Assembly: GCA_021821305.1 (NCBI GenBank)
Contig: JAKACP010000001.1
Span: 132,934-196,933 of the forward strand
Direction of reading: 5' to 3'
Length of the DNA stretch: 64,000 nucleotides
Source of the DNA: a bacterium
GTDB lineage: Bacteria > Patescibacteriota > Minisyncoccia > Moranbacterales > UBA1568
Shown: positions 12,250 to 47,815 of the stretch, piece by piece
Numbering within the stretch: the first letter of the stretch is position 1
Layout: the number at the start of each line of letters is the position of its first letter
Notes under the pieces: generated by a model
What the model saw: the letters and a program-made list of their open reading frames with translations, nothing else
Database searches by the model: none
Told to the model about the DNA's origin: nothing
Made by a program: the position numbers and the translations under genes

Positions 12250-12263
12250 AGCTTGTTCAATAT

Positions 12264-13351: not shown

Positions 13352-13361
13352 GATCGCACCT

Positions 13362-13850: not shown

Positions 13851-13880
13851 AGTACGAATGTTTTGCCAGGAAAATGAAAT

Positions 13881-13912
13881 ATCCATCCGAACAGGGATGG
13901 ATTTTCCTTTGT
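13881..13912 (+). terminator. intrinsic terminator after jag
   Basis: ATCCATCCgaacagGGATGGAT stem-loop followed by a T-rich tract. Confidence 0.5.
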
Positions 13913-13967
13913 TTGCCTTTTCCTTCCTCAAAACGTACAATGGGAGGGTACTATTTCGGAAAAGTCT

Positions 13968-16387: not shown

Positions 16388-17222
16388 ATTTTCCCTCATA
16401 TACGTCAATTTCAGAAGCGCCGACTTGCTCGCCGAGTCGCTCGGGTCGCTTCGAAGGAACGGGGTTTTGGGCGAGGATGTCGAGGTCATTCTCGTGAATA
16501 ATGACCGGGAAGAAGAGGAAAAACTCCGGTACGTGGCGGCGAAGTTTTCCTGCACATCGCTGTCATTTCAGGAAAACCGCGGTTTCGGCTGGGCTGTGAA
16601 TCAGGCGGCCGGAAAGGCGCGCGGGAAATACATCGGCTGTATCAATCCGGATACGGAGTTCCTCGGAGGCTCCCTTTCCCCGATAGCGGGTCTTTTCGAA
16701 AAATATCAGAAAATCGGCATCATCGGTGCGAAAATAGTCGGTCCGGATGGGGCTCCGGAGAAGTGGAGTGCCGGGAAGAAACTTTCGCTGTGGCAGATCA
16801 TACGGAACAACACCGGGTTTCCTTCGGGTCGGCGATTGTGGATGAGCCAAAAGAATCGCTCGGTCGGATGGGTGAGCGGAGCCGCTCTTTTCATCAGGAA
16901 AGAACTTTTCGATCGGCTGTCCGGGTTCGATGAGCGGTTCTTCCTCTATTTCGAGGATGTGGATCTCTGCTATCGGGCCAAGCAAGAGGGTTTCCTCGTC
17001 GCCTTCTGCCCAAAAATCTCTTTTCTTCATAAAGGCGGCATGAGCCATGAATCGAAGCGATCGCAAAAGGAGTTGTTCTACGATTCCCAAAGGAAATATT
17101 TCGAGAAGCATCGTCCGAAGTGGGAACGCCTTTTGTTGGAAGGGGCCCGGAAAACGTTGAAATCCGGGTACTCCGGGGAACCGGACGGGAAGTCGCCCAT
17201 CATACTCCCCCACACATCATGA
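16356..17222 (+). CDS. glycosyltransferase family 2 (second)
   Basis: SLIYVNFRSADLL...ILVNNDREEEEK...YFEDVDLCYRA. Overlaps the previous gene by 32 nt. Confidence 0.8.
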   Translation: MKITENQKNPEFSLIYVNFRSADLLAESLGSLRRNGVLGEDVEVILVNNDREEEEKLRYVAAKFSCTSLSFQENRGFGWAVNQAAGKARGKYIGCINPDTEFLGGSLSPIAGLFEKYQKIGIIGAKIVGPDGAPEKWSAGKKLSLWQIIRNNTGFPSGRRLWMSQKNRSVGWVSGAALFIRKELFDRLSGFDERFFLYFEDVDLCYRAKQEGFLVAFCPKISFLHKGGMSHESKRSQKELFYDSQRKYFEKHRPKWERLLLEGARKTLKSGYSGEPDGKSPIILPHTS

Positions 17223-18502: not shown

Positions 18503-19749
18503 TATCACCGGAATTTTTTCTGAAAACGATGCTGTTTCTCGCTTTCCTTCTTTTCCCCTTCGCCCAGGAACGGCTGGTCATATTCGGGATACCGGTCTAT
18601 GCGCTCGAATTCCTGACCATCCTTTCCGGTAGCGCTTTCCTCTTCGGTATATGGAAAGGATCGATCGCGGTGAAACGGATACCGAGAGGGCTGCTATGGG
18701 GCGCAGGGCTCCTCTTCGGCGGTGCGGCCATATCGCTCCTCATGAACGGAGTCGATCGGGAAGGGCTCGGAGCTCTCAAGAGCTGGATACTGTTCCCGAT
18801 GCTGTTCGCGTTCCTGGCGTACCAGGGAATTTCCACTCCCAGTCAAAAAAACGCGGCGCTTCTCCTGTGGTTCGTGGGAATTTCCCTGGTGGCATCCGCC
18901 ACCTTCCTTATACCGAGCTTGTCCACGGAAACGTATGACGGTCGCCTCCGCTCCTTTTTCCCGTCCCCGAACCACCTCGCGATGTTTCTCGTCCCCGGCG
19001 CCGTGATCGGATCATTCCTCCTCTCGCGGTGCATGAAGCCTCTGCCGAAAGGGGGTCTCACGCCGAACCTCTTCGTGATAGCGCTCATGCTTTCGATCGT
19101 CATCGGCGCACTCCTCAAAACCGAATCTCTCGGCGGGGTGGTCGGTTTCGCCTCGGCCGTCGCCGTTCTCCTCGCCTCCTCCTCCCTTCAGCCTCACATT
19201 CTCCGGAAATCGGCCCCGATCCTTTTCCTCTGCGCCGTCGCGATCGTCGGATGTATCGCCTTTTCGGTCGATTGGGCGAGTCTCGCAAGCGGAGAAACCC
19301 GGACATCACTCGGATCCCGGGTGATGATATGGAACACGTCGCTCAGCCTGATAACCGAACATCCGGTAGCGGGGATAGGGATGAGAAATTTCGAGGAGGC
19401 ATACCTCGCCTTGCAACCGTTCTTTCCGTCGTACCTCGAGTGGGCGGTGCCGCATCCGCACAATATCGTGCTCGCCTTCTGGCTCTTCACCGGAGTCGTG
19501 GGGCTCATCGGCTTCCTGACGCTCGTTATTCTCACCGTCAGCTCGCTCCTGGATCGCCTGTCGTCCGGAACCGATCCGGAGGCTCGCCGATTCCACGGGC
19601 TCATGCTGGCGCTCCTGGTGGCGCTCCTGGTGCAGGGGCTCGTCGATACGCCGTACTTCAGGAATGATCTCAGTTTCTTCTTCTGGGCGATCGTAGCGTT
19701 GTCCGCAATTCTGTCCGGAGATGGAAAGCGTGGTTCCGATGCTTCCTGA
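18499..19749 (+). CDS. O-antigen ligase / Wzy-like family membrane protein (paralogue)
   Basis: Same architecture and motifs (HPVAGIGMRNFE...PHPHNIVLAFWLFTGVVG); ATGA overlap with the previous gene. Confidence 0.75.
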   Translation: MISPEFFLKTMLFLAFLLFPFAQERLVIFGIPVYALEFLTILSGSAFLFGIWKGSIAVKRIPRGLLWGAGLLFGGAAISLLMNGVDREGLGALKSWILFPMLFAFLAYQGISTPSQKNAALLLWFVGISLVASATFLIPSLSTETYDGRLRSFFPSPNHLAMFLVPGAVIGSFLLSRCMKPLPKGGLTPNLFVIALMLSIVIGALLKTESLGGVVGFASAVAVLLASSSLQPHILRKSAPILFLCAVAIVGCIAFSVDWASLASGETRTSLGSRVMIWNTSLSLITEHPVAGIGMRNFEEAYLALQPFFPSYLEWAVPHPHNIVLAFWLFTGVVGLIGFLTLVILTVSSLLDRLSSGTDPEARRFHGLMLALLVALLVQGLVDTPYFRNDLSFFFWAIVALSAILSGDGKRGSDAS

Positions 19750-21067: not shown

Positions 21068-22039
21068 TTATTGGACCTGGATGTGGATGTGATTCGGTCC
21101 GGAGGAGCAGGGAACGAATTTTCCGCTGTTATCGCAGATGGCGACCGGTCTCTTGCCTGCGTAGGTTCCGGTATTGAGCTTGTTGAATATATCGGCCATC
21201 TGTTGGTATCCTATCCCGCCCGTCGGTACGATATCGACCCCTATTCCTTTGTAGTGGGTGGAGTTCGTCGAGTGGCTTCCTCCCGCGACACTCGTCACGG
21301 TGAATCCGTAACTCGGATTCATTCCTTTGATCGTGGTGGCGAGTTGGGAGAGTCCCGAGGCGATGCCCGGATGGAGAGTGGATTTCCCGTTGCAGAGACT
21401 GGTCGTATTGTTGCATCCCTTATGGCATGTGATCATCTGGTTTCCCGCGGCTGTTTCCTGAATGTTCCCTTTCGGAAGCACCGGGCCCGCGTTTGAACTG
21501 CAACTTGCCGATGTCCCCCAGCTCACGTTGGAAGCGGAGAGGAGGCTCGATGCCGCCGCTTGAGCGGAAGCGATCGGAGGCGCCGGCGTCCCGAAGTCCC
21601 CTGTGGGAGTTCCGCTCGGTTGGGATGGCGTATAGGAAACCGTCCCGCCGACTGCGCTGAACCTCGACAGGTTCAGGTTGACGAGGTCAGGGTTGATCAC
21701 ATTGAGAATGAGGTAGGCGAGGAGCGCCAAGACGAGCCCGATGAGCGCATCGGAGATATATCCCTTTGCCCGGGAGAGGGTCGCGGTGTTTCCGCCGCTC
21801 GTCATGTAGACGAATCCCCCGACGGTGAGCATGAAGAGAGCCGCTATCCCGACGGTCCAGATGCCGAACTTGTATATGCCGCTTACGTAATCCGGAAGCG
21901 TAGTGGCTCCTGTGGCGCCGGGAATCTGCTCGAGCGGGGTATAGGTGAAGCCTTGCCCGAGCGTAGCGGACGGAGCGGCGAAGAGAAATCCGACGAGTAC
22001 TGCGGCGAACACGGACGCGAAGATGGTTCGTGATTTCAT
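21068..22039 (-). CDS. TrbC/VirB2-like two-TM pilin-type N-domain fused to a Cys-rich LAS/M15-like metallopeptidase C-domain
   Basis: Signal peptide plus two TM helices (GIYKFGIWTVGIAALFMLTVGG ... ISDALIGLVLALLAYLILNV). C-terminal STHYKGIGVD (S-x-H-x-x-G-x-G-x-D = H-x6-D) and terminal HIHIQ (H-x-H), as in M15/LAS zinc peptidases. Upstream: TATACT -10 and GGAGGAG RBS. Confidence 0.5.
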   Translation of the reverse strand: MKSRTIFASVFAAVLVGFLFAAPSATLGQGFTYTPLEQIPGATGATTLPDYVSGIYKFGIWTVGIAALFMLTVGGFVYMTSGGNTATLSRAKGYISDALIGLVLALLAYLILNVINPDLVNLNLSRFSAVGGTVSYTPSQPSGTPTGDFGTPAPPIASAQAAASSLLSASNVSWGTSASCSSNAGPVLPKGNIQETAAGNQMITCHKGCNNTTSLCNGKSTLHPGIASGLSQLATTIKGMNPSYGFTVTSVAGGSHSTNSTHYKGIGVDIVPTGGIGYQQMADIFNKLNTGTYAGKRPVAICDNSGKFVPCSSGPNHIHIQVQ

Positions 22040-22084
22040 ATGTTTGTTATTTTTCTCCTCCAGTATAGCGCATTTTCAGCGAAA

Positions 22085-22144
22085 GAAAAAACCCTGTGAA
22101 ATCCTGCTAGGCAGGAATCCGCAGAAGCGGATTATTTCACAGGG
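22085..22144 (-). terminator. nrdAB operon terminator, formed by three-way-junction element copy R2
   Basis: On the minus strand: CCCTGTGAAAT / AATCCGCttctGCGGATT / CCTGCctaGCAGG / ATTTCACAGGG followed by TTTTTTC. Same element as 2918..2969, with covarying base pairs. Confidence 0.55.
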
Positions 22145-22206
22145 TAAATCAAATCCAGAATAAAACCCGGATTTCATTGGATTTATTCCTCATTCGGTAT
22201 TCGTCT

Positions 22207-23265
22207 TCAAAAGTCCCAGCTTCCGTTCATGCTCGAGGATTGGGTATAGTTGACGACCGTCGTCTCGAAGAAATTGCCTTTGTCGGAGTTCGGGTCCTGG
22301 AGCCGATCGAGGTGCTTGTAGGGGTTTTCGACGGCTTCCGGGTAGAGTGGGGCTATTCCGAGCATACCGAGGCGGTTGTTGGCGAGCCACCGCGTGTAGC
22401 TCTGGGTCGTGTCTCCGTTGAGGCCCGGGATACGGTCTCCGAGTATGTGCCTCGACCACTCGATTTCCTGTTTGACGGCCGTGTCCATCATGTCCACGAT
22501 GAGTTTCTCATCGTAGATTTCCGGGAACTCCCGCCGGATCTCGCGGATGAGGTTGGCGAATATCGTGATGTGGGTCAGCTCGTCTCGGCGGATATAGGCG
22601 ATCATGCGACCGGTCGCGAGCATCTTCATGTGATCGACGAGCGTGTCGAAGAACGCGAACCCGTTGTAGAAATAGATCGATTCGAGGAGGAAGTTCGCCA
22701 CGATACCTCGGAAGAACGTCGCATCCGACGGATCGTCGATGAAATCCTGATAAATGGATCCGATGTACTTGTTGCGTTCGAGGAGGATCTTGTCCGTGCG
22801 CCAGAAGTAGTAGATCTCGTCGCGCTCCTCGCTCTCGACGACCGACTCGAGGATGGTGGCGTAGGACTGGGAGTGGATCGCCTCCTGGTAGGCCTGGATC
22901 GAGAGGATGAGGTTGACCTCGGGCGAAGTGACGTAGTCGGAGAAGTGCGGGAGATTCACCGTCTGTATGGAGTCGAGGAAGATGAGGAACGAGAGCACTC
23001 CCTTGTAGGCGCGCTGTTCGTCGTCGGTGAGCTCGGAATGGAACATCCGGGCGTCGTCCTTGAGCCCCGAGACCTTTTCCGGCACCCAGAAATTCCCGAC
23101 CATCACCTGGTAGAGGGATTTCGCCCACGGGTACTTCGTGGTATTGAGGTTGAAGAGCCCCGTGGTCGATCCCTTGATGATGGTGCGGCGTTCCACCTCG
23201 TCGTGCCCCTCCGGATTGAAGATGGCGTTCCGGTGTATTTTTTCAGTCATAGCCCTTGGAGTCAT
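22207..23265 (-). CDS. nrdB: ribonucleotide reductase class I beta subunit
   Basis: Di-iron ligands and radical site in EAIHSQSY...FLLESIYFYNGFAFF...RDELTH; lies downstream of nrdA. Confidence 0.9.
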   Translation of the reverse strand: MTPRAMTEKIHRNAIFNPEGHDEVERRTIIKGSTTGLFNLNTTKYPWAKSLYQVMVGNFWVPEKVSGLKDDARMFHSELTDDEQRAYKGVLSFLIFLDSIQTVNLPHFSDYVTSPEVNLILSIQAYQEAIHSQSYATILESVVESEERDEIYYFWRTDKILLERNKYIGSIYQDFIDDPSDATFFRGIVANFLLESIYFYNGFAFFDTLVDHMKMLATGRMIAYIRRDELTHITIFANLIREIRREFPEIYDEKLIVDMMDTAVKQEIEWSRHILGDRIPGLNGDTTQSYTRWLANNRLGMLGIAPLYPEAVENPYKHLDRLQDPNSDKGNFFETTVVNYTQSSSMNGSWDF

Positions 23266-23283
23266 TTCGTGATCCGTCCCGAA

Positions 23284-25899
23284 TTATCCCGAACAGTTGA
23301 CACAGTCGTCCTTCACTTCGCCCGAGAGACTTCGTACGTAGTAGACGGTCTTGATGCCCTGCTCCCAGGTCTTGATGTAGTAGCCGAAGAGCTGTTCCGG
23401 CGAGACGCGCGAGGGGTCGATCATCCATTCGAAGCTGATCGACTGGTCCACCCACTTGTAGACGACCGAGATCATATCGATGACGTCGTTCATGTCCATG
23501 TTCACGTACTCCTTGTAGTACCAGAAGTTCTCCTTGTCGAGCTTGGGGGCGACGCGGACGGTCGGCGCGGAGAGGTTGGTTTCGACGAAATAGCGCTTGT
23601 ATATGGGGAGAAGCGCGGCCGTGGTGCCGACGACGCCCGCCGTCGAGGTGTTCGGGGCCGGAGCGGTGTGGTAGCCGAACCGTACGCCGTACTTGCGCAT
23701 GTCGTCGAAGATATCGTCCCAGGCCTTCCCGTGTTCCGTGTTGAGCGAGAACCACTCCCGGTTCTGTCCGAGGATGACCCCCTTGTCGTATTCGCTTCCC
23801 TTGTAGAGCGGGTAGTGTCCGCGCTCCTTCGCGAGGTCGACCGACGAGCGGTAGGTATGGTACGCGTACCGGGAGAAGATTTTGTCGACGAGGTTCCGGG
23901 CCTCCTCGCTGTCGTACGCGAGCTTTCTCGTGGCGAGGAATTCGGCGAGCCCCAGGTACCCGAGGCCGATCGACCGGTACCGCATGGCGGTCCGCTCCGC
24001 TTCCTTGATGGGGTAGAAGTTGAGAGTGATGACGTTGTCGAGGACGCGCATGACGACCGGGAAGACCTCGGCCATCGTTTCCTCCTCGGACACCGTGGCC
24101 ACATTGATCGAGGCGAGGTTGCAGACGACGAGATCGCCGGGATCGTACCGGATGACGATGGTCCCGTCCTCGATCTCTTCCTCGACGAACCGGCTCGCCG
24201 AGGTGTTCTGGCAGATCTCGGTGCACAGCTGGGTCGAGTAGACGTTGCCTGCGTGCTTGTTCGGGTTCAGCCGGTTCACGGTGTCGCGGAAGAAGACATA
24301 GGGCATGCCGGTTTCCACCACGGACTTGAGGAACTTCTTGAAGAGGTCCTTGGCCTTCACGGTGCGCTTCATCGTGAGCGAGTCGTCTTTCTCGAGCGTC
24401 TCGTAGAACTTCTCGAACGCTTCCCCGAAATGGTCCTGGAGCGATTTGCCGTATTTGTCCGAGATCTCGTGCGGATCGAAAAGGGTCCAGTCCCCGTTCT
24501 CCTTCACGCGGCGCATGAAGAGATCCGGTACGGAGATCGACGGGAAGATGTCGAACGCCTTCGACCGGATGTCTCCGGTTTCCGTCTGCAGGTCGAGGAA
24601 GTCATAGATATCCCCGTGCCAGGCGTCGAGCGTGACCGAGATGGCGCCGAGCCGGGATCCGAGCTGATTGACGGCGACCGCGGTGTCGTTGATGACCTTG
24701 ATCCACGGGTTCACGCCGCCGGACATCCCGAGGACGCCGCGTATGGCGCTTCCGCGCGACCGGATGTTTCCGAGGTAGACGCCGACCCCGCCGCCGAATT
24801 TCGAGATCTGCGCCATGTTCTCGATGGCATGGTAGATGCCGCGCAGATCGTCGTCGACATTGATCTTGAAGCACGAGGAGAGCTGGTGGTAGTTGGTCCG
24901 GGAGTTGAGCAGGGTCGGGGTCGGGAGCGATATGCGTTGTTCCGAGCAGTGCCGATAGACCTTGAAGGCGAAATCGAGACGGGTCTCGTCGGATTCCGGG
25001 ATCGCAAGGAAGAGCGCGATCGACATGTACATCTCCTGCGGGAGCTCCTTGACGATCTTGTTCGGGTTCAGAAGATACCGTTTGGCGAGGGAGAGGAGCG
25101 TCGTATATTCGTACCGCTCGTCGATATCCGTCGAGAGGAGCGCTCCGGCCTTGAGGATGTCCTCCTTGGAATAGTATTTGTAGAAGTCCTTGTAATAGAG
25201 TCCGTCCCGCACGTATTCGTCGAACAGCGCCGCGTAGGCCGCCGGAGAATAGATGTCCTTCTGCGCGAGCCCGCGGTTCTTGACCGCCTGCTTGTAGAGC
25301 GTCCCGAGGAATATCCTCGCGGCGACCTGCTGCCAGGCGATGTTCTCCACCGTGACGAGGTCGATACAGGTCTTGACGAGGAGCTTGCCGATATCGGATG
25401 TCTTGATATCCTCGACGATGTTCTTCTTGAACGTTTCCATGAGATCCTCGAAGCGGCACTCCGCCTCGTACCCCTTGGCGGCCCGGTCGAACACCGCGCG
25501 GATCTTCGCGAAATCGAACGCCTCCTTCGACCCGTCCGCCTTGGTCACCTTGAGCGATCGGTTCTCGAACTGCTCGATGAGCTTCTCCTTCTTCTCCTCG
25601 CGCTCCTCCTTCCGCTTCTCGCGATAGATGATGTAGGCCTTGGCGACCTCGAACTTGTTCGCCTTGACGAGATTGCGCTCGACGATGTCCTGGATATCCT
25701 CGACCGCCGGAGTCCGGTTGACGAAGATGTCCGTGTAGACATGCTCGATGTCGCGTATGACGGTATCGGTCAGCTCGGGGATGAATCCTTTCTCGGTCTC
25801 GCCGATGGCGTCGCACGCGAGCGCGATCGCGTTCTCGATCTTCGATCGGTCGAAGTCGACCACCTCTCCGTCTCGCCGCTTGATTTTCGTGAGGGGCAT
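23284..25899 (-). CDS. nrdA: ribonucleotide reductase class I alpha subunit with N-terminal ATP-cone
   Basis: 871 aa; ATP-cone (KIKRRDGEVVDFDRSKIENAI), catalytic NSRTN...CFKIN, C-terminal redox Cys pair (CVNCSG). Confidence 0.95.
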   Translation of the reverse strand: MPLTKIKRRDGEVVDFDRSKIENAIALACDAIGETEKGFIPELTDTVIRDIEHVYTDIFVNRTPAVEDIQDIVERNLVKANKFEVAKAYIIYREKRKEEREEKKEKLIEQFENRSLKVTKADGSKEAFDFAKIRAVFDRAAKGYEAECRFEDLMETFKKNIVEDIKTSDIGKLLVKTCIDLVTVENIAWQQVAARIFLGTLYKQAVKNRGLAQKDIYSPAAYAALFDEYVRDGLYYKDFYKYYSKEDILKAGALLSTDIDERYEYTTLLSLAKRYLLNPNKIVKELPQEMYMSIALFLAIPESDETRLDFAFKVYRHCSEQRISLPTPTLLNSRTNYHQLSSCFKINVDDDLRGIYHAIENMAQISKFGGGVGVYLGNIRSRGSAIRGVLGMSGGVNPWIKVINDTAVAVNQLGSRLGAISVTLDAWHGDIYDFLDLQTETGDIRSKAFDIFPSISVPDLFMRRVKENGDWTLFDPHEISDKYGKSLQDHFGEAFEKFYETLEKDDSLTMKRTVKAKDLFKKFLKSVVETGMPYVFFRDTVNRLNPNKHAGNVYSTQLCTEICQNTSASRFVEEEIEDGTIVIRYDPGDLVVCNLASINVATVSEEETMAEVFPVVMRVLDNVITLNFYPIKEAERTAMRYRSIGLGYLGLAEFLATRKLAYDSEEARNLVDKIFSRYAYHTYRSSVDLAKERGHYPLYKGSEYDKGVILGQNREWFSLNTEHGKAWDDIFDDMRKYGVRFGYHTAPAPNTSTAGVVGTTAALLPIYKRYFVETNLSAPTVRVAPKLDKENFWYYKEYVNMDMNDVIDMISVVYKWVDQSISFEWMIDPSRVSPEQLFGYYIKTWEQGIKTVYYVRSLSGEVKDDCVNCSG

Positions 25900-25958
25900 A
25901 GGGTTTTCTTTTGTTGCTGATTGTAATCGGTTCCCTCCAGAACCTCATCAAAAATCAA

Positions 25959-26522
25959 TTACGCGAGCCGTTTTTCCGCCTCGCTCCAGTCTACGGACGC
26001 GAAGAATGCGGTGATGTAATCCGCGCGCTTGAGTCCGTAGTCGATCATGAACGCGTGTTCGAAGACGTCCATGACGAGGAGCGGCGTCGCGCCGGCGAGG
26101 TGTCCCAGGTCATGCTCGTTCACCCAGATATTGAACAGTTTGTTCTGCTTCGTGTCATGGACGAGCATGACCCACCCGATGCCGCGCATGGTCCCGATGC
26201 CGATGAAGTCCTTCTTCCACTCCTCGACGCTTCCGAAGTCGGCTGCGATCTTCTTCGCGAGCGCGCCGTCCCCGAGGGACGAGCCGCCCTTCTTCATGTT
26301 GCCGAAGTAGAGCTCATGGAGACGCATGCCGTTCCATTCCCATCCGAACCGCCGATGCAGTTCGGAATATTCCGGCGTCCCCGGCTCAGCGGCCAGGAGC
26401 AGTTCCACGAGCTTGTTCGTGTTGTTCACGTAACCCTCGTAGAGCGCGAAGTGATTGGTGAGAAGCGTGTCCGAGAACCCTTCGGTTCCGAGGAGATGCG
26501 AGAAGTCGTGCGCGGCGTACAT
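25959..26522 (-). CDS. sod: Fe/Mn superoxide dismutase
   Basis: Metal ligand contexts NHF, LHELYF, DVFEHAFMIDY; C-terminal domain WVNEHDLGHLAGATPLLVMDVFEHA. Confidence 0.9.
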   Translation of the reverse strand: MYAAHDFSHLLGTEGFSDTLLTNHFALYEGYVNNTNKLVELLLAAEPGTPEYSELHRRFGWEWNGMRLHELYFGNMKKGGSSLGDGALAKKIAADFGSVEEWKKDFIGIGTMRGIGWVMLVHDTKQNKLFNIWVNEHDLGHLAGATPLLVMDVFEHAFMIDYGLKRADYITAFFASVDWSEAEKRLA

Positions 26523-26534
26523 ATTTTTTTGTTT

Positions 26535-27152
26535 TTAGATTTTTCCGACGAGATCGATACCCGGCTTGAGCGTCTTCTTTCCCGGCTGCCATTTCGCTGG
26601 GCACACTTCACCTCCGTGCTCACGGACGAACTGCGCGGCCTGGAGCTTGCGGATCAACTCGTCCGAGCTGCGTCCGATGTTGTTGGAGTTCACTTCGAAC
26701 GACTGGAGTACTCCGTCCGGGTCGACGATGAACGTGCCGCGACGCGCGAGACCTTCGTCCTCGCCTTCTTCTATATAGACGCCGAGCATCCGCGAGAGTA
26801 CGCCGGCCGGATCCGCGAGCATCGGGTACTTCACCTTCTTGATCGCGTCCGAGTGATCATGCCACGCCTTGTGGGTGAATTTCGTGTCGGTGCTCACCGA
26901 AACGATCTCCGCACCGAGCTCCTGGAACTTCGCATAGTTGTCGGCGAGGTCTTCGAGCTCCGTCGGGCAGACGAACGTGAAGTCCGCCGGGTAGAAGAAA
27001 ATGATGAGCCATTTTCCCTCGTAGTCCGAAAGATGCGTCTTCTTGAACGTTTCTCCGTGGTACACTTCACCGCCGAAATCGGGAATTTTTTCCCCGATGA
27101 TGGGCAGCATATTTCCGCTACCGCACCCGTCTCCACAGCTATTTCCACACAT
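26535..27152 (-). CDS. peroxiredoxin (AhpC/Tsa 2-Cys family)
   Basis: FTFVCPTEL peroxidatic Cys motif; C-terminal resolving Cys region (GEVCPAKW). Confidence 0.9.
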   Translation of the reverse strand: MCGNSCGDGCGSGNMLPIIGEKIPDFGGEVYHGETFKKTHLSDYEGKWLIIFFYPADFTFVCPTELEDLADNYAKFQELGAEIVSVSTDTKFTHKAWHDHSDAIKKVKYPMLADPAGVLSRMLGVYIEEGEDEGLARRGTFIVDPDGVLQSFEVNSNNIGRSSDELIRKLQAAQFVREHGGEVCPAKWQPGKKTLKPGIDLVGKI

Positions 27153-27350
27153 AGTCGTACGTGTTATTGTTTAGTTCGACGCTCCTTTAGAGTGTCTCAT
27201 CATAATAGGATTCTCCTGAAAGAATGTCAAATATGGCCATATGAAGCCATTATTTCGATAATCGTCAAGGTGTGTTCACGAAATATCGTCGAAAAAACAA
27301 CAACATATTGTGTTTTGACAGATTGAAAATAACGATAGGTAGTCCATTCT

Positions 27351-30609: not shown

Positions 30610-30683
30610 GGCCAGGTGTCCGAGCGGTTAGGAAGAGGTCTGCAAAACCTCGTACAGGAGTTCGACTCTCCTCCTGGCCTCCA
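30610..30683 (+). tRNA. tRNA-Cys(GCA), CCA encoded
   Basis: Acceptor GGCCAGG/CCTGGCC; anticodon stem GAGGT/ACCTC with loop CTGCAAA; T-arm AGGAGTTCGACTCTCCT; discriminator T then CCA. Confidence 0.85.
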
Positions 30684-30736: not shown

Positions 30737-31207
30737 ATGCGGCCTCGAAAATGGACGGATGCCCAGTTGATCGCGGCGGTAAAAAAATTCAAGAGTACCA
30801 GGGCCGTTATCAATGCATTGGGGCTCATCCCTGCCGGAGGAAATTATCTCCAAGTGAAAGAAAGAATACGGGATCTTGGCCTCGACACCTCGCATTTTCT
30901 CGGTATGGGATGGTGCAAAGGGATGTCTTTTGATCGTCCGATGATCCCTCTTGAGAACATTCTTGTCGAAAATTCGTCATATCAGAGTTATAAATTGAAA
31001 AAACGACTCTTCCGTCTGGGCTTGAAGATTCCTAAGTGCGAGGAATGCGGATGGGCGAAGATATCCGCTGATGGCCGGATCCCATTGGAGCTTGACCATA
31101 TCAACGGAAATTCCAGGGATCACCGGATCGGAAACTTACGGGTGCTTTGCCCCAATTGTCATAGCTTGAAGCCGACACATCGTGGAAAAAACAAGAACAG
31201 GAAGTAG
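30737..31207 (+). CDS. HNH endonuclease (free-standing, homing-endonuclease-like)
   Basis: C-terminal HNH motif ELDHINGNSRDHRIGNLRVLCPNCHSLKP plus CEECGW zinc-hook Cys. N-terminal helical region (WTDAQLIAAVKKFKSTRAVINALGL...LGLDTSHF) as in phage/actinobacterial HNH proteins. Confidence 0.85.
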   Translation: MRPRKWTDAQLIAAVKKFKSTRAVINALGLIPAGGNYLQVKERIRDLGLDTSHFLGMGWCKGMSFDRPMIPLENILVENSSYQSYKLKKRLFRLGLKIPKCEECGWAKISADGRIPLELDHINGNSRDHRIGNLRVLCPNCHSLKPTHRGKNKNRK

Positions 31208-31215
31208 TTTGTTTC

Positions 31216-31297
31216 GGGTCGGTGGTGGAACTGGCATACACGCGACACTTAAAATGTCGTGCCGAAAGGCTTGAGGGTTCGACTCCCTCCCGACCCA
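31216..31297 (+). tRNA. tRNA-Leu(TAA)
   Basis: Acceptor GGGTCGG/CCGACCC; anticodon stem CGACA/TGTCG with loop CTTAAAA; long variable arm; T-arm GAGGGTTCGACTCCCTC. Confidence 0.8.
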
Positions 31298-31397
31298 CAG
31301 AGCTTTTTCTTTCGTATCTGACGCTGGACGAAATATTCACTTTCTGTTAGGCTTTTCGGAAGTTCTTTTTCAACCGAAACTGTTAGGAGGGTGCAAC

Positions 31398-34536: not shown

Positions 34537-34595
34537 AGGTCGGTAAAAATCCGATTTCTTGGCGTTTGATGGACGCCTTTGCCCGACGATGGTTG

Positions 34596-34667
34596 TGCCC
34601 CCAGAGGGAATCGAACCCCCATCTCTCCCTTAGGACGGGATAGCTCTATCCATTGAGCTATGGAGGC
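34596..34667 (-). tRNA. tRNA-Arg(CCT)
   Basis: Minus strand: acceptor GCCTCCA/TGGGGGC (one G-U pair); anticodon loop GTCCTAA; T-arm GGGGGTTCGATTCCCTC. One A-G mismatch at the top of the anticodon stem. Confidence 0.7.
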
Positions 34668-34679
34668 AGGATGGCTATG

Positions 34680-34752
34680 TGGACCGTACCGGATTCGAAC
34701 CGGTGACCTCCTCCATGCCATGGAGGCGCTCTACCAACTGAGCCAACGGCCC
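34680..34752 (-). tRNA. tRNA-Ala(GGC)
   Basis: Minus strand: acceptor GGGCCGT/ACGGTCC with the diagnostic G3-U70 wobble; anticodon stem CCTCC/GGAGG with loop ATGGCAT; T-arm ACCGGTTCGAATCCGGT. Confidence 0.85.
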
Positions 34753-34884
34753 TGATTTGACTACCCGAAGTGTTATCTATGGTATATCGAATCGTTTCTT
34801 CCGTCAATTTTGTTTTACAGAGTGTGGGCCGCTTTTATGATTAAAATATATTAAACAATAAATAATATAAAATGTCAAGTATAT

Positions 34885-35540
34885 TGTTCCACGTGGAACA
34901 TTACACTCTTGTCTTTACGATTGCCAGTTACTCAGATTCAATTTGATATTGTTCCACGTGGAACAATTCTATCGCGACTTTTCTTTGAAGATGTATAAAA
35001 GAAGGACGTGCAAATGTTCCACGTGGAACAAATGTTTTTATATGCGTTGAGTTAAAATGTTCCACGTGGAACATTCTTATGAACATCCATAGATCAGTTC
35101 GGCTCATTCTTAATTGTTCCACGTGGAACAATTGGTCGATATTTTTTTGTGCCTTAAATAAAGAAATTGGTTAATTGTTCGCTTCAAGATAAAGATCATC
35201 GGCATAATGTTCCACGTGGAACAAATATTCAAATAAAAGAAATCGACTCCCAATACCTTAAATTGTTCCACGTGGAACAATTTATTCCTACTCTCTCATC
35301 CATATTAAATTCAAAAACACAAAATGTTCCACGTGGAACATTTTTGTAATATTAAAAACCAGGATATGTTCCACGTGGAACAATTAAGAGAATTTGTTTA
35401 CAACGTCACCTTTCATATGGATTTTGTTCCACGTGGAACAAAATCAGGGAATTCTTAAATCCCTAGAGATCTGCATGTCCGTCACAATGTTCCACGTGGA
35501 ACATTGTTGCTCCTGGGCGCCTTATGTTCCACGTGGAACA
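34885..35540. repeat. array of 12 perfect 16-bp palindromes TGTTCCACGTGGAACA (symmetric parS-like sites) in an AT-rich intergenic region
   Basis: Exact copies start at 34885, 34950, 35015, 35058, 35115, 35208, 35264, 35325, 35367, 35425, 35488, 35525; spacing 37-93 bp. Several extend to 20-26-bp palindromes (e.g. TAAATTGTTCCACGTGGAACAATTTA at 35259..35284). A degenerate half-site lies at 35171..35180. Differs from B. subtilis parS TGTTCCACGTGAAACA by one base. Confidence 0.9.
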
Positions 35541-35555
35541 ATCTTGATAGATATA

Positions 35556-35584
35556 TTGACAAAATATATATATTATTGTATAAT
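35556..35584 (+). promoter_or_regulatory. consensus sigma70 promoter immediately downstream of the palindrome array
   Basis: TTGACA (35556..35561), 17-nt spacer, TATAAT (35579..35584). Followed by a ~240-nt leader before the first secreted-protein gene. Confidence 0.6.
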
Positions 35585-35830
35585 ATAATACTTGAAAGGA
35601 TCACTCGACTTTATTTCATATATATAGAGAGCCACCGAATCATCCTGACTCCGGATTTTCAAATCGGTATCCTTTCGAGAAAAGAGTGGGTGGTTTCTCG
35701 GAATTCGGCATGCGTGGTGTGCTCGAATCGGTGTCCCAGTGATTTACGCATCTTGGCATGACTTGCGTGCATGACGGCTATTGTCGTATCCCTCCAAAAG
35801 TGCTATAATGGAGTCAAACAAAATTCTCGT

Positions 35831-36838
35831 ATGGAAAAGACGGACAACCGAAACGCTCTCGCCGGGATGAGAAAGCATTTTTTCGTTTTATTCGGCCTAC
35901 TCTTCTTGAGTGGAGCCTTTTTTGTTTCCGCCGCGGAGGAAATGACCGGAAAAAATATCGTCGAAGATCCCGACCAGGACGGATTGACGACCGCAGAGGA
36001 AAAACTGTATGGAACCGATCCGATGAACCGTGATTCCGATGGTGACGGATATTCCGATGGCGTCGAAATCAAAGGCGGCTATGACCCGCTCAAGAAAGCT
36101 CCCGGAGATAAGATCATCCCGGATCAGGAAACCGATGCGGACGATGCGGGGGAATTCGGAATCGGCGGTGACAATCTCACCGAGCAGGTTTCCGAGAAGA
36201 TAGCGGCGCTCGTTCAGGAAAACAGTTCCGGTGAAGATGAGAATGCGGAAGTGTCCCTCGAGGAAATCAATCTTCTGGCTCAGAACCTGTCCGCCGGGAA
36301 CGTCGAGGAAGTGGTGCTCCCCGAAATCGATACCGATACCATCAAGGTGAAGAAGCAGTCGTACAAGAATCTTTCCGATGAAAAACGCGAGGAGCGGATC
36401 AAGGAAGATATCACCGAATATCTGACTATCATCGCCTACATCTTCGCGAACAACTCGCCGGAGCCGTTCGGGACGGATGATGAATTCAAGGACATGTCGA
36501 CGTCGCTTGTCGACAGCGCTTTGTCATCGATCTCGCTCGGCAACGTCGCCCAGCTGAACTCTCTCGCGGAAAACGGGGAGAAGGTGCTCGCGCAGATATA
36601 TGAGGTGGAGGTTCCCGAACAGATGCTCGATGTGCATGTGAAGGCGATCAAGCTCGCCAAATACGCGACCACGCTCAAGGGGGAACTCGCGGTCGACCCG
36701 GACTCCGATCCGATGAAGATGATCGCCTCGCTTTCGAAGGTGCAAGGCTTCCTGAACATCGTCGTTTCCTTCACGACGGAGATACAGTCGAAACTCTCCG
36801 AATATGGGATTTCGGAAATTCCTCTCGACATCAATTAA
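35831..36838 (+). CDS. secreted protein with thrombospondin-type-3-like Ca-binding Asp-rich repeats
   Basis: Signal peptide after MEKTDNRNALAGMRKHFFVLFGLLFLSGAFFVSA; DPDQDGLTTAEEKLYGTDPMNRDSDGDGYSDGVE repeats. Start at ATG 35831 (ORF opens at 35771). Confidence 0.6.
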   Translation: MEKTDNRNALAGMRKHFFVLFGLLFLSGAFFVSAAEEMTGKNIVEDPDQDGLTTAEEKLYGTDPMNRDSDGDGYSDGVEIKGGYDPLKKAPGDKIIPDQETDADDAGEFGIGGDNLTEQVSEKIAALVQENSSGEDENAEVSLEEINLLAQNLSAGNVEEVVLPEIDTDTIKVKKQSYKNLSDEKREERIKEDITEYLTIIAYIFANNSPEPFGTDDEFKDMSTSLVDSALSSISLGNVAQLNSLAENGEKVLAQIYEVEVPEQMLDVHVKAIKLAKYATTLKGELAVDPDSDPMKMIASLSKVQGFLNIVVSFTTEIQSKLSEYGISEIPLDIN

Positions 36839-36871: not shown

Positions 36872-37894
36872 ATGAGAATCAAGAAATCCATCGTCATCTC
36901 GATATTCACGCTGGTGTTTTTTTCTCAGGCGATCGTTTCGGCTCCCCGTGCTCAGGCCGGATACTGGGGTGAGCCTATCTTCGCCGCCTTCATAGATGAT
37001 ATGCTCGAGAAGATCATGCGACAGATCGAGGGAGCGATGCTCGCCGCGCTCAAGGCGAGTGCCGTCAACCTGATCAACAGCCAGGTGGGACAGCTCATCG
37101 GAGGTGCTTCCGCGGGGGAATCGCTTGTCATCAACGATTGGAAGGGATTCCTCTATGACGAGCCGGAACAGCGGGTACAGATAGAGATGGAAAACTTCTT
37201 CGCCTCGATGACGAGCGGCCGTTCGTCGTCCGCGAATTATGGCAGTCCCTATAGTCTGGCATCCGGAAACCCGACTCTCGGCAACTACAGCGCCCGTCTC
37301 GTCGAAGGCGCGAAGCTGAGCCTGGGGACTCCTTATCAGCCGACGGACATATTGGAGGTGTCTCCGGATCCCGAGACCGCGTTAGCGGAGGGGGACCTAC
37401 GAACGCTCAACGCGCTCTTCTCGAATCCGATGAACAATCCTTTCGGGTTCACGCTCGCCGCGCAGAGCTATGAGCGTTCCGTCCGTGAGCGCGAACAGCA
37501 GGAGCAGGTCGTGCAGTCCATCTCGCACGGATATCGGAGTAGCCCAGGCCTCCCGGGAAGCACCGTCGGTCAGTTGGTGGCGGATGCGCAGGATGTCGGA
37601 AACAAGATCATCGCGGCCGCCTCGAACCCGGGTGAACTTGCGAGTGGCATCATCACCTCGCTCGTGAACAAGACGATCACGAATATGGTACAGAAGGGAA
37701 TCGGCGATGTGCAGGCGAATATACAGCGTGAAATCGGGAACGTCGACCGGCAGATTTCGGGGCAGATCAAAACGCTCGACCAGACGCTCGGACCGGCGGC
37801 AGGATTCATCGACGAGGTGCGCCAGCAGACCAATGTCATCGTCAAGCCCGCGACGGACCCCGGCGCCGCCATACCGAAGGGGACATCGCTCTAG
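36872..37894 (+). CDS. secreted hypothetical protein
   Basis: Signal peptide MRIKKSIVISIFTLVFFSQAIVSAPRAQA; no recognised domain; probably co-transcribed with 35831..36838. Confidence 0.55.
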   Translation: MRIKKSIVISIFTLVFFSQAIVSAPRAQAGYWGEPIFAAFIDDMLEKIMRQIEGAMLAALKASAVNLINSQVGQLIGGASAGESLVINDWKGFLYDEPEQRVQIEMENFFASMTSGRSSSANYGSPYSLASGNPTLGNYSARLVEGAKLSLGTPYQPTDILEVSPDPETALAEGDLRTLNALFSNPMNNPFGFTLAAQSYERSVREREQQEQVVQSISHGYRSSPGLPGSTVGQLVADAQDVGNKIIAAASNPGELASGIITSLVNKTITNMVQKGIGDVQANIQREIGNVDRQISGQIKTLDQTLGPAAGFIDEVRQQTNVIVKPATDPGAAIPKGTSL

Positions 37895-38214: not shown

Positions 38215-39090
38215 TTATCCGATACCGGGTACTTCTTTTTGTATCACGTTTTTTTCCTTTTGGGAAGCCTCGTCCGCTGTCTCCGTCTGCGCCGGTTCTT
38301 CGGGAGTCGCGATGAATCGAAAGAACGAGAGCCAGGCGCTTTTCTGGATCACGGCCATCGCGCCCTGGAAAAGGAAGAGCACCGCTATGACGAAGAGGGC
38401 GCCGCCGTTCGAATTGGGGATCAAGGCGTCGCTTATGCCGAGCATGATACCGATAACGACGGAGAAGATGATGAGAACGAGGATCGAGAGGGCTCCGAAG
38501 ACGAGGCTCGTCGCGGCGCGCTTCACGAAAAGCGCATAGGCGAGTTCGACCGAGGATCGGAGGGTGGTTTTCGACAGGACCAGGTAAAAGAACGCGTAGA
38601 TTTCCATCAGGGCGATGACGATGGAAATCGGGAGAAAGACCGCGATACCGAGGAAGGCGAGATTGTTCCAGAGCCCGGGCGTATCCGCCGTGAGCATGGC
38701 CGGAACGAGGAGTACGACGAGCAGAAGGAAGAGCGAAAGCAGTGCACCCACTTCGAGCGCGTAGAGCTTCCAGAACGACGAAGAGATCCGTTTGGATATC
38801 TTTCCGAATGCGGGCTTCCGTTCGGCAAGAGCGAGGATGAGTCCTCCCTTGAAGAACGTCGAGAGCGCTATCGTCACGGGAAGTACGGCGAGGAGCCACG
38901 GCTGCGCCGAGAAGAGGTCGATGGCGGCATAGCGGTACCGATCGAGCGGAGCACCCTCCTCGAGAAGCGATGAGAAGTATTCCAGGCTCGAGAGCGTGAG
39001 CAGAAGTCCGAATGCCAGGGCGACGCGGTTCCTGACCACGGTCGGGATCGCGTCGCGGAAGAATCTGATGAAGAGCTTGAATTCGTTCAT
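38215..39090 (-). CDS. hypothetical polytopic membrane protein
   Basis: 291 aa, ~6-7 TM helices, no recognised motif. Overlapping + strand ORFs are antisense artefacts. Confidence 0.5.
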   Translation of the reverse strand: MNEFKLFIRFFRDAIPTVVRNRVALAFGLLLTLSSLEYFSSLLEEGAPLDRYRYAAIDLFSAQPWLLAVLPVTIALSTFFKGGLILALAERKPAFGKISKRISSSFWKLYALEVGALLSLFLLLVVLLVPAMLTADTPGLWNNLAFLGIAVFLPISIVIALMEIYAFFYLVLSKTTLRSSVELAYALFVKRAATSLVFGALSILVLIIFSVVIGIMLGISDALIPNSNGGALFVIAVLFLFQGAMAVIQKSAWLSFFRFIATPEEPAQTETADEASQKEKNVIQKEVPGIG

Positions 39091-44845: not shown

Positions 44846-45124
44846 ATGCGAAACCGCATAGTCGAAAAGATAGAGGAAATACGGCAGAAACCCGAGCATG
44901 TCCGCATCTGGTATGCGTGGGCATCGGTGCTGGTCATCATGTTTTTCGTCATCATCATCTGGATATTCACCCTGCAGGAGAGTCTGCGGGAAAGCGCCCC
45001 TATCGAGGACGTGAGAAAGATCCAAAGCAGGCTTCCATCCGCGGATACGGGGCAGGAAAAGCAGTCCCTGGAAGAGATATTCAAGTCGCAGGGAGGAGCT
45101 TCGGGAAGCTCGGATTACCGATAG
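44846..45124 (+). CDS. small single-pass membrane protein, hypothetical
   Basis: 92 aa from internal ATG 44846: MRNRIVEKIEEIRQKPEHVRIWYAWASVLVIMFFVIIIWIF... Confidence 0.4.
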   Translation: MRNRIVEKIEEIRQKPEHVRIWYAWASVLVIMFFVIIIWIFTLQESLRESAPIEDVRKIQSRLPSADTGQEKQSLEEIFKSQGGASGSSDYR

Positions 45125-45145
45125 GGAGCGTGGCCGTTTCAAAAG

Positions 45146-45349
45146 AATGATAATCTGAGAGCCTGTCTAATATCTCATGTCGAACTGAAAATTCAGAATT
45201 TCGAGCGAAAATCATGCATCGTGAGAAGGCCTATCGCGATAAGCCGACGAGCGATAAATGATTTGCAGCCGAAATTCTGAACTTTCAGATGACAAGCAAA
45301 AAAAAGTCTTTCTCTTATTTCATGCGTTGAGATATGAGACAGGCTCTAA
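45146..45349. mobile_element. MITE-like element with nested inverted repeats upstream of gyrA
   Basis: Outer IR GAGAGCCTGTCTAATATCTCA (45146-45166) versus TGAGATATGAGACAGGCTCTA (45329-45349). Inner IR CTGAAAATTCAGAATTTCG (45175-45193) versus CGAAATTCTGAACTTTCAG (45267-45285). No ORF inside. Confidence 0.4.
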
Positions 45350-45355
45350 TACCGT

Positions 45356-47815
45356 ATGAGCAAGCAGACACAGGAGGAAATCGATATACATGGCCGGATC
45401 GATCCGAGAGCGATCACCGACGAGGTCCGCCAGTCGTACCTCGACTATGCGATGAGCGTCATCGTGGCGCGTGCCCTGCCGGACGTCCGTGACGGATTGA
45501 AGCCGGTGCACCGCCGCATCCTCTATTCGATGTGGGCGACGGGCCTCCGTTCCACCGCGAAATTCCGGAAATCGGCGACGGTCGTCGGTGAGGTGCTCGG
45601 AAAGTATCATCCGCACGGCGACTCCGCCGTGTACGAGACCATGGTCCGCATGGCGCAGGATTTCTCACTCCGCTATCCGCTCATCTGGGGCCAGGGAAAC
45701 TTCGGCTCGCTCGACGGCGACGGTGCCGCGGCCTACCGCTATACCGAAGCGAAGCTTTCCCCGATCGCCGAGGAGATGCTGCTCGACATCGAGAAGGACA
45801 CCGTCGATTTCATACCGAACTTCGACGGCGTGCATATGGAGCCGACCGTGCTCCCGGCCAAGCTTCCGCAGCTCCTCCTCAACGGGACGGTCGGTATCGC
45901 CGTCGGTATGGCGACCAATATCCCCCCGCACAATCTGAGCGAGCTCGTGGACGGCATCTGTCACCTCATCGACAACCCCGACGCGGGAGTCGACGAGCTT
46001 ACGGAGTTCATCAAGGGCCCGGACTTCCCGACGGGCGGCATCATCTATGACGCGAAGGATATCCGCGAGGCGTACGCGACCGGCAAGGGTAGGATAGCGA
46101 CGCGCGCCAAGGCGGAGATCGTCGAGACCAAGGCCGGAGCGTTCCAGATCATCGTGACCGAGATCACCTACCAGACGAACAAGTCGACGCTCATCGAGAA
46201 GATCGCCGACCTCGTGAAGGAAGGCCGGCTCACCGGTATCCGCGACCTGCGCGACGAGTCCGACAAGGACGGCGTTCGGATCGTGGTCGAGCTCAAGAAG
46301 GAAGCCTATCCGCAGAAGGTGCTCAACCAGCTCTACACCCTCACGGATCTCCAGAAGAATTTCAACGTCAACATGCTCGCGCTCGTCGACGGCATCGATC
46401 CGCAGATCCTCAATCTCAAATCGATACTCGAGCACTACATCATCCATCGCGAGAAGGTGGTGGTGCGTCGCGCGGAATACGAGCTCGCGAAAGCGAAGGA
46501 CCGCGCGCATATCCTCGAAGGGCTCAAGAAAGCCCTTGATTTCATCGACGCGGTCATCGATACGATCCGAAAATCCAAGACGAAAGAGGAGGCGCACGCG
46601 AACCTCATGAAGAAGTTCAAGCTCTCCGATCGCCAGTCGACCGCGATTCTCGAGATGCGGCTCCAGACACTCGCCGGACTCGAGCGCAAGAAGATCGAGG
46701 ACGAGCTCGGGGAAAAGTACAAGATCATCGCCGAACTCGAGACGTTGCTTGCGAGCAAGAAGAAGATCTTCGCGCTCGTGAAGAGCGAACTCCTCGAGCT
46801 CAAGGAGAAATACGGCGACGAGCGCAAGACCCGCGTCGTGAAGTCCGGCATCGGCGAGTTCAAGCAAGAGGACCTCGTCCCGAACGAGGAAGCCATCGTC
46901 ACGATCTCGGACGACGGCTACATCAAGCGCATGAATCCTTCCGTCTACCGCGTGCAGAAGCGCGGCGGCAAAGGCGTCATCGGCGCGGTCGCGAAGGACG
47001 AGGATCGGATCTCCATGGTGATCTCGCTCGAGACGCACGACGACCTCATGTTCTTCACGAACACCGGCAAGATATTCCAGCTCAAGGCATACGAGATTCC
47101 CGAATCGTCCCGCACCGCCAAGGGGACGGCCGTCGTCAACTTCATCCAGACGAGCCCCGAAGAGAAGATCACCGAGATGGTGTCCTTTCGCAAGGGGAGC
47201 GACGCGAAGTACCTCTTCATGGCGACGCGTCAGGGGACGATCAAGAAGACCAAGATCGAGGATTTCGCGAACGTCAGGCGAAGCGGCCTCATCGCGATCA
47301 ACCTCGACAAGGGCGATGTCCTGGGATGGGTCAAGCTCACGACCGGATCCGACGAGATCATCATGACGACCCGCGACGGGCAGGCGATCCGTTTCAAGGA
47401 GACCGACGTGCGCGCGATGGGACGTTCCGCCGCCGGCGTACGCGGTATCAAGCTCGGCGCGGGCGACGAAGTGGTCGGCATGGATATGATCTCCAAGGAC
47501 CAGAAGGGGCTCGAGCTCCTCATCCTCTCGCAGAAGGGTCTCGGGAAGCGCAGTGAACTCAAACACTACAAGATCCAGAAGCGCGGCGGCTCGGGCATCA
47601 AGACGATGAAAATCACACCGAAGACGGGCTCGCTCGTCGGCGCGATGATCACCTCCATGGCCAACATCGAGGACGATCTCATCCTCACGTCCGAGAAGGG
47701 GACGATCATCCGGATCCCGTTCAAGTCCGTTCCACTCCTTTCCCGCGTGACCCAGGGTGTCCGCATCATGAAGCCGCAGGCAGGCGACCAGGTCGGTGCC
47801 TTCACGATGCTGTAG
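45356..47815 (+). CDS. gyrA: DNA gyrase subunit A
   Basis: Active-site Tyr region ([10 protein letters not shown]), QRDR-like segment, C-terminal beta-pinwheel repeats. No gyrB adjacent in this window. Confidence 0.95.

Follow-up and report, generated by a model that had tools for sequence, protein, structure and literature searches.

What is the role of twelve identical palindromes packed into a short non-coding stretch near the replication origin of a bacterium from a lineage that cannot be cultured? The locus lies in the 64-kb stretch of DNA analysed here (hereafter the window). An exact-match scan recovered 12 mismatch-free copies of TGTTCCACGTGGAACA at 34885–35540 (656 bp), whereas 0.01 copies of a 16-mer of this kind would be expected by chance across the window (dinucleotide-preserving shuffles). 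The initial annotation had suggested counting one-mismatch variants as well; beyond the array, no copy of TGTTNCACGTGNAACA was found in the 64 kb, even when up to two mismatches were allowed. The sites are numbered below under the name argued for in the following paragraphs; all coordinates refer to the window.

34885–35540, unstranded: whole parS array, 12 exact 16-bp palindromes with AT-rich non-coding spacers
34885–34900, unstranded: parS 1, TGTTCCACGTGGAACA, exact match
34950–34965, unstranded: parS 2, exact; 20-bp palindrome when extended
35015–35030, unstranded: parS 3, exact match
35058–35073, unstranded: parS 4, exact; 20-bp palindrome when extended
35115–35130, unstranded: parS 5, exact; 22-bp palindrome when extended
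35208–35223, unstranded: parS 6, exact match
35264–35279, unstranded: parS 7, exact; 26-bp palindrome when extended
35325–35340, unstranded: parS 8, exact; 24-bp palindrome when extended
35367–35382, unstranded: parS 9, exact match
35425–35440, unstranded: parS 10, exact; 26-bp palindrome when extended
35488–35503, unstranded: parS 11, exact; 24-bp palindrome when extended
35525–35540, unstranded: parS 12, exact match

The start-to-start spacings are 65, 65, 43, 57, 93, 56, 61, 42, 58, 63 and 37 bp, leaving gaps of 21–77 bp between neighboring sites, and no helical phasing is evident from them. Seven of the twelve sites extend to palindromes of 20–26 bp. Beyond the site and its immediate flanks, the spacers are mutually unrelated, and only a core of 16–20 bp is repeated. 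Their G+C content is 31%, compared with 56% for the window, and no reading frame of at least 100 codons spans the array. The picture drawn in the initial annotation, perfect palindromes at irregular 37–93-bp spacing in an AT-rich intergenic region with several copies extended to 20–26 bp, is thereby confirmed. Outside the array, the parS core CACGTG occurs twice where Markov models predict 5–8 occurrences, a mild depletion that is not significant.

The 1.4 kb around the array and all 12 sites in it recur at 100% identity in four further assemblies from different samples (ENA ERZ534008 and Logan SRR28285720, SRR13304626 and SRR6670121). Its identity in four independent assemblies rules out an assembly artefact. 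Conservation at the strain level is otherwise uninformative, since strain differences cluster in gyrA. Compared with the ERZ534008 strain, 61 of 81 differences over 19 kb fall in the gyrA region (window 45000–47000), marking a local hot spot where divergence or recombination is concentrated.

An array of repeats in non-coding DNA could encode RNA, as a CRISPR, TIGR, terminator or insulator array, and single palindromes with their T runs do score as terminator-like. The spacing is irregular, however, the repeat is only 16 bp long and fully palindromic, and no cas or tas genes lie nearby in the window. An Rfam scan at gathering thresholds returned tRNAs only, the E-value scan adding hairpin noise far below gathering scores, and the predicted promoters described below face away from the array. 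We regard an RNA-encoding array as extremely improbable, and the earlier dismissal of a CRISPR holds on the grounds of irregular period, palindromic 16-bp repeat, missing cas genes and lack of an Rfam match. No competing content was found within the array, which contains neither a coding frame nor an Rfam family nor a tandem unit.

All 12 sites match the parS consensus tGTTNCACGTGNAACa exactly and represent its symmetric form. The parS consensus of M. xanthus, TGTTCCACGTGGAACG, contains the 16-mer as its core and is bound by purified ParB, and a duplex containing TGTTCCACGTGGAAC is shifted by M. xanthus ParB in vitro (PMC3778016, PMC3899335). In relatives of the window organism, the variant sites TGTTTCACGTGGAACA and TGTTCCACGTGAAACA carry changes at positions 5 and 12 only, which are the two degenerate positions of the parS consensus.

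Independent support for this identity came from loci chosen by DNA pattern alone, not by par genes. A genome scan for two exact copies 20–50 bp apart (one genome per species, 8-kb blocks) yielded at least 120 loci, with hosts in Acidobacteriota, Bacteroidota, Verrucomicrobiota, Bacillota, Proteobacteria and the candidate phyla radiation (CPR). Using tblastn, with a Spo0J query that proved to match B. subtilis Spo0J at 100% identity, parB was located in the same 8-kb block in 50 of 120 loci and parA in 50 of 120, among the matches listed; dnaA or dnaN was present in 12–17 of 120, again among the matches listed. A metagenome scan for three close copies of the 16-mer also gave at least 120 loci, with parB in 44 and parA in 58 of 120 among the matches listed. 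Combined, parAB share the fetched stretch with the clustered 16-mer in ~40% of 240 loci (among the matches listed), and in one of them (L113) 14 sites lie directly upstream of parA-parB. Since this linkage emerged from the DNA pattern alone, it is strong evidence that the 16-mer is a ParB site wherever it is clustered. The recognition of the palindrome as a perfectly symmetric parS in the initial annotation is thus supported both by the consensus match and by the parAB linkage elsewhere. In a complete scan of a viral collection, only 19 contigs contained a close pair of the 16-mer.

The same loci (L001–L120 and L136–L255) provided 959 exact clustered sites, whose flanks are biased: A at −2 in 68%, A/T at −1 in 80%, T/A at +1 in 83% and T at +2 in 66%, compared with a background of ~24% per base. 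This A-W...W-T preference indicates an effective site that is a 20-bp palindrome, which explains the longer palindromes in the array. The smallest start-to-start spacing among the 959 sites is 26 bp.

The surroundings of the array are those of chromosomal housekeeping, with dnaA, gyrA, tRNAs and rbfA. The features that matter for the argument are the following.

9048–10205, strand not given: dnaN, beside dnaA
10441–11886, minus strand: dnaA (Pfam), origin marker
34595–34752, minus strand: tRNA-Arg(cct) and tRNA-Ala(ggc), conserved left-hand neighbors of the array
34779–34807, minus strand: weaker promoter-like site TTGACG-17-TACCAT (9/12, consensus match only), facing tRNA-Ala/tRNA-Arg and away from the array
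35556–35584, plus strand: sigma-70-type consensus promoter TTGACA-17-TATAAT (12/12), facing the TSP3-repeat gene and away from the array
35831–36838, plus strand: encodes a 335-aa protein, N terminus signal-peptide-like, with a bacterial TSP3 repeat; conserved right-hand neighbor
36872–37894, plus strand: encodes a 340-aa protein, N terminus signal-peptide-like, without any Pfam family; conserved together with the TSP3-repeat gene

DnaA boxes are found at 10266, 10441, 11993 and 12004. The measured distance between array and dnaA, 23.0 kb, agrees with the earlier estimate of ~23 kb and corresponds to ~3% of an 826,099-bp NCBI contig on which exact proteins of the window (DnaN, KsgA and the 340-aa protein) are also found. 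The gene content is CPR-like (a small YidC, T4SS-pilin-like proteins and many orphan proteins), and the GyrA of the window shares 74% identity with its counterpart in a MAG labelled 'Parcubacteria group bacterium'. One T4SS-pilin-like ORF (21068–22039, minus strand) sits beside very large ORFs without a Pfam family (1247 aa at 22177–25920; 471 aa at 25911–27326); the large Pfam-less ORFs of this region (21068–27326) are typical CPR surface or orphan genes. In a tRNA-rich stretch, a 156-aa ORF with an HNH endonuclease domain (30737–31207, plus strand) lies between tRNA-Cys (30610–30683) and tRNA-Leu (31216–31298) and may be a homing or mobile nuclease.

To the left of the tRNA pair, rbfA, a DHH-family gene and a UDG gene are all on the minus strand. 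On the right, the consensus promoter begins 15 nt past the last parS site, ahead of two genes whose products both have signal-peptide-like N termini, in keeping with the promoter and the pair of secreted-protein genes described earlier for this position. If the predicted promoters are real, the array would lie between diverging transcription units and would not be transcribed through. Between the consensus promoter and the TSP3 gene start at 35831 lies a leader of ~240–245 nt (35591–35835, plus strand), which matches no Rfam family and folds no better than shuffled sequence (z = 0.65). The leader contains a second promoter-like site, TTGTCG-17-TATAAT with TG, at 35781–35809 and a 14-nt direct repeat at 35659 and 35723.

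If the sites are parS, where is the cognate ParB? Pfam scans of ~50 ORFs and tblastn with Spo0J (best E 0.085) and Soj detected neither ParA nor ParB in the window, as the initial annotation had stated for parAB. A 291-aa ORF at 38215–39090, a candidate ParB by size, turned out to be a polytopic membrane protein. The 5.4 kb to the right of the window contained neither parAB nor further copies of the 16-mer. Among CPR relatives, no ParB or ParA was found at the arrays in 11 metagenome loci (2.5–14 kb), and no ParB in two 21-kb neighborhoods of the gene that hosts the array in relatives (see below). A homologue search seeded with Spo0J returned Bacillus ParBs only and did not reach CPR ParBs. 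The lack of parAB at the CPR arrays read indicates that the array in this clade is not parAB-linked, unlike in Acidobacteria or Myxococcus.

We take COG1475 to be the ParB/Spo0J family. In a table of Parcubacteria core genes, COG1475 is recorded for 13 genomes, and Soj/ParA (COG1192) has no entry (PMC4508563 supplement). Apart from this entry, our literature search retrieved nothing specific on ParB or parS in Patescibacteria/CPR, and full-text searches retrieved no paper on parS in Patescibacteria. With COG1475 in the core table and COG1192 not, an orphan ParB whose main task is to load SMC is conceivable. A more radical reading is that the clade has lost or replaced ParB and that a divergent ParB-fold paralogue or an unrelated HTH protein binds the array. 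Such a binder would fit the lack of parAB near any array read in CPR relatives and of ParA in the core list, but both the array sequence and the allowed variants agree exactly with parS, the Parcubacteria core includes COG1475, and a parB unseen in ~3% of the genome says little. We therefore rate a non-canonical binder as highly unlikely.

Evidence on what is conserved came from relatives. In Moranbacteria/Parcubacteria-like genomes, the order rbfA, tRNA-Arg, tRNA-Ala, array and TSP3-repeat gene recurs. The tRNA-Arg/tRNA-Ala pair also flanks the array in L218, L214, L240 and L237, and homologues of the TSP3-repeat gene adjoin it in L218, L214/L152, L240 and L063. One relative, L218, reproduces the order of the window (rbfA, tRNA-Arg, tRNA-Ala, array, TSP3 gene, 340-aa gene, tRNA-Val) with proteins 36–57% identical to those of the window. 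Its array comprises 16 sites in 812 bp of non-coding DNA, all exact, with spacers of ~30% G+C that show no homology to those of the window and are unalignable with them. The suggestion to look for the same array beside the same genes in related genomes was therefore answered positively. In L218, two outward promoters, each matching 11/12 positions (8058–8086, minus strand, and 8933–8961, plus strand), lie 9 and 27 bp from the array ends. Outward promoter-like sites thus bracket the array in both non-coding orthologues, and transcription would leave it on both sides without crossing it, provided that the predicted promoters are real. A Moraniibacteriota MAG (L103) shows rbfA, tRNA-Arg and then non-coding sites, its contig ending inside the array.

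L214/L152 and L240 share this synteny, but all of their sites (17 or 16) fall inside one open frame of 664 or 715 codons, respectively, between tRNA-Ala and the TSP3 gene. All 17 sites of L214 are exact. In L237, from the same organism as L014, 12 sites lie in a 552-codon frame adjoining the same tRNA pair, and the arrays of L012, L250, L154, L180 and L063 are similarly contained within open frames. Wzy_C-family ORFs hosting an array are located as follows.

L214, 4274–6268, plus strand: array-hosting frame
L240, 1775–3922, plus strand: array-hosting frame
L237, 7867–9525, minus strand: array-hosting frame
L012, 6189–7973, minus strand: array-hosting frame
L250, 1444–3375, minus strand: array-hosting frame
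L154, 1651–2529, minus strand: array-hosting frame
L180, 11384–12487, plus strand: array-hosting frame

The host frame encodes an O-antigen-ligase-family membrane protein (Pfam Wzy_C, 40.6 bits vs a cut-off of 31.7), and NCBI gives the protein this family name in Moranbacteria and Parcubacteria MAGs. The palindromes are translated in frame as FHVE, CSTWN or VPRGT. Among the best 120 host-protein homologues, at least one of these peptides is present in 106, a count biased upward because the candidates were gathered by shared 5-residue words, and at least five are present in 57. Judged from the sequences, this is the more unusual finding: a putative centromere array of these relatives is carried in frame inside a membrane-protein gene.

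The window itself contains two adjacent Wzy_C (O-antigen ligase) genes (17120–19749, plus strand) in a polysaccharide cluster directly after rnpA-yidC-jag near the origin; they carry no parS and are weakly similar (~29% over 105 aa) to the parS-hosting ligases of relatives. When the window array was examined as a possible decayed Wzy-like gene, its parS-masked spacers retained no similarity to the host proteins (best E 0.48). Synteny suggests that the host gene was lost in the window lineage.

In L237, L154, L180, L140 and L248, the array lies beside other genes (gyrA, dnaA or yidC). Across the clade, the sequences indicate that what is conserved is the presence of sites at the locus; the spacers, the coding status and the right-hand neighbor are not. 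Sites that persist while spacers and coding status vary, as in the 16 exact sites of L218 between unalignable spacers and the 17 of 17 exact sites of L214, point to purifying selection on the binding of a protein with ParB specificity.

These relatives also bear on the regulatory alternative raised in the initial annotation, a repressor super-operator. Under this reading, ParB or a different palindrome-binding repressor would occupy the array chiefly to silence the secreted-protein promoter and possibly that of the tRNAs. A regulatory effect of some kind is possible, given that 15 nt separate the last site from a 12/12 promoter, that the L218 array is likewise bracketed within 9–27 bp by its two 11/12 outward promoters, and that P. 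aeruginosa ParB is reported to repress promoters beside parS3 and parS4 (PMC5521831). Yet no array site overlaps a −35/−10 region, and 12 sites over 650 bp far exceed the needs of an operator. Furthermore, the L214/L152 and L240 arrays are inside the upstream gene, more than 400 bp from the TSP3 gene start, those of L237, L154, L180, L140 and L248 adjoin gyrA, dnaA or yidC, and the same motif is tied to parAB across phyla. With orthologous arrays inside a gene or beside different genes, promoter adjacency does not seem to be the conserved trait, and the super-operator is a weak and improbable alternative.

The in-frame sites raise a further question, namely whether the copies belong to a selfish, parS-like palindromic element (REP, MITE or RPE type) that multiplied locally and plays no part in segregation. 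Rickettsia palindromic elements insert in frame in genes, much as the sites of the relatives lie in frame in theirs. A module of ~110 bp with three sites recurs three times in L014/L237, and L188 carries a ~132-bp unit with three sites in tandem. A selfish-repeat origin of the site-bearing modules in relatives is therefore possible. For the array itself, however, all copies are at one locus, with none elsewhere in the 64 kb or the 5.4 kb beyond, only the 16–20-bp core is repeated in the window while the spacers are unrelated, and the core is identical across phyla and parAB-linked. The locus is also orthologous rather than scattered, and a selfish repeat would leave the single locus with perfect sites unexplained. 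We judge this reading to be very improbable.

Taken together, we consider it likely that the array is a chromosomal parS centromere, that is, a ParB loading array, of a small-genome bacterium of the Moranbacteria/Parcubacteria type of CPR. The proposal of a ParB-binding centromere near the origin draws its support from the parAB linkage elsewhere (~40% of loci) and from the positional conservation in relatives. Read in this way, the array is a known kind of segregation site in unusually compact form, not a new kind of element.

For ParB binding in the window organism and all effects downstream of it, we infer the likely course from established ParB biology. Loading of ParB begins at parS, where the protein closes into a CTP-dependent clamp that then slides off, whereupon the sites are reloaded (PMC7053999, PMC8367383). 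At the present locus, CTP-bound ParB dimers would recognize each 16-bp palindrome via their helix-turn-helix, with an effective recognition site of ~20 bp given the A-W...W-T flanks. The dimers would then close into clamps and slide onto adjacent DNA, after which the array sites could be reloaded. Twelve loading sites 37–93 bp apart, with gaps of at least 21 bp, should permit simultaneous occupancy and a high loading flux. The expected outcome would be a partition complex in which ParB is very highly concentrated on the DNA ~23 kb from dnaA; this complex might be moved by ParA, be used to load SMC, or both.

A broader and clearly more tentative picture can be sketched for the clade. In Moranbacteria-type CPR, one dense parS array that keeps its place by tRNA-Ala/tRNA-Arg may serve the entire chromosome as its single point-like centromere. 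The usual and probably ancestral home of this array would be the O-antigen-ligase-family reading frame. The window lineage and L218 would have lost the host gene and have kept and compacted the sites. ParB would be encoded elsewhere, possibly as an orphan without ParA, and serve mainly for SMC loading, while the array might also bring an ultra-small cell's few ParB molecules together in a single focus. The modules, in turn, may multiply through duplication or insertion in frame, as Rickettsia palindromic elements do. We offer this scenario as a possibility that we do not favor outright.

If correct, the centromere assignment would give a lineage that cannot be cultured a clean, sequence-defined centromere. 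With 12 perfect sites in ~0.66 kb, the array also offers a substrate on which ParB loading, the crowding of clamps and the stimulation of CTPase activity could be studied where sites are packed very densely. Our scans indicate that dense parS arrays are common in uncultured bacteria. In the CPR clade, an array fixed at one orthologous locus, whether non-coding or in a membrane-protein frame, speaks for selection on the sites themselves and raises the question of how a translated gene and a ParB loading platform share the same DNA.

How does the array compare with known systems? Chromosomal parS sites had been described in the initial annotation as normally solitary, and the array as reminiscent of plasmid or phage centromeres. 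Neither statement was supported: clustered sites are common in the genome and metagenome scans and are known from the Myxococcus chromosome (PMC3899335), and close pairs occurred in just 19 viral contigs. The largest array found, L161, has 27 sites (26 exact) in 1.9 kb (27–1886) of a 1.9-kb metagenome contig with 60% G+C, followed by L188 with 23 sites in 1.75 kb (12230–13979), L152 and L214 with 17 sites in 1.46 kb, L218 with 16 sites in 0.81 kb, L113 with 14 sites in 1.7 kb and L058 with 5 sites in 186 bp. At one site per 55 bp, the window array is at the dense end of this range but not unique. In L188, one group of sites lies upstream of parA (12444–13187), and the tandem ~132-bp units that follow, with three sites each, reach the contig end, where parB would be expected. 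The contigs of L103, L140, L188 and L162 all end inside arrays, which suggests that dense parS arrays break short-read assemblies.

The F-plasmid sopC and other tandem-repeat plasmid centromeres comprise about a dozen ParB-family palindromes in less than 1 kb, and the window array resembles them in site number, extent and high loading-site density. However, sopC consists of regular 43-bp tandem repeats, uses a site sequence of its own and sits beside sopAB on a plasmid, whereas the window array is irregular, has unrelated spacers and the chromosomal parS sequence, lacks adjacent par genes and lies on a chromosome. A sopC-like plasmid or phage centromere is contradicted by the irregular 37–93-bp spacing, the unrelated spacers, the lack of par genes in the window and the chromosomal housekeeping context.

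A closer parallel is the parS cluster of M. xanthus, with 22–24 sites in ~3 kb, ~30–35 kb from oriC (PMC3899335, PMC3778016). The two share the core sequence, and in each case numerous sites are gathered at a single locus near the origin, at a comparable distance from it. For the Myxococcus cluster, binding by ParB has been demonstrated (PMC3899335, PMC3778016). The window array has fewer sites, 12, all of them perfect copies, at ~2.5 times the density (one per 55 bp vs about one per 140 bp). The Myxococcus cluster lies ~4 kb upstream of parA in a 9.1-Mb genome, while the window array is not beside parAB and its host has 826 kb. The dispersed parS sites of Bacillus subtilis, Caulobacter, Pseudomonas, Corynebacterium and Streptomyces share the 16-bp consensus and the origin-proximal bias (PMC7022226), but they are kilobases apart and often imperfect, whereas those of the window are identical and confined to 656 bp. 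The KorB operators of RK2 and P. aeruginosa parS3/parS4 are single sites at or near promoters. They exemplify repression of adjacent promoters by a bound ParB-family protein (PMC5521831). The window array, in contrast, lies beside promoters without overlapping them, and its orthologues are not consistently beside a promoter.

Further close matches are the arrays of L218, L161, L188 and L113, which share the exact 16-mer, a spacing of mostly 35–65 bp and the A-W...W-T flanks. Among them, L218 is a true orthologue of the window array, whereas L161, L188 and L113 belong to unrelated lineages, in which many of the arrays adjoin parAB.
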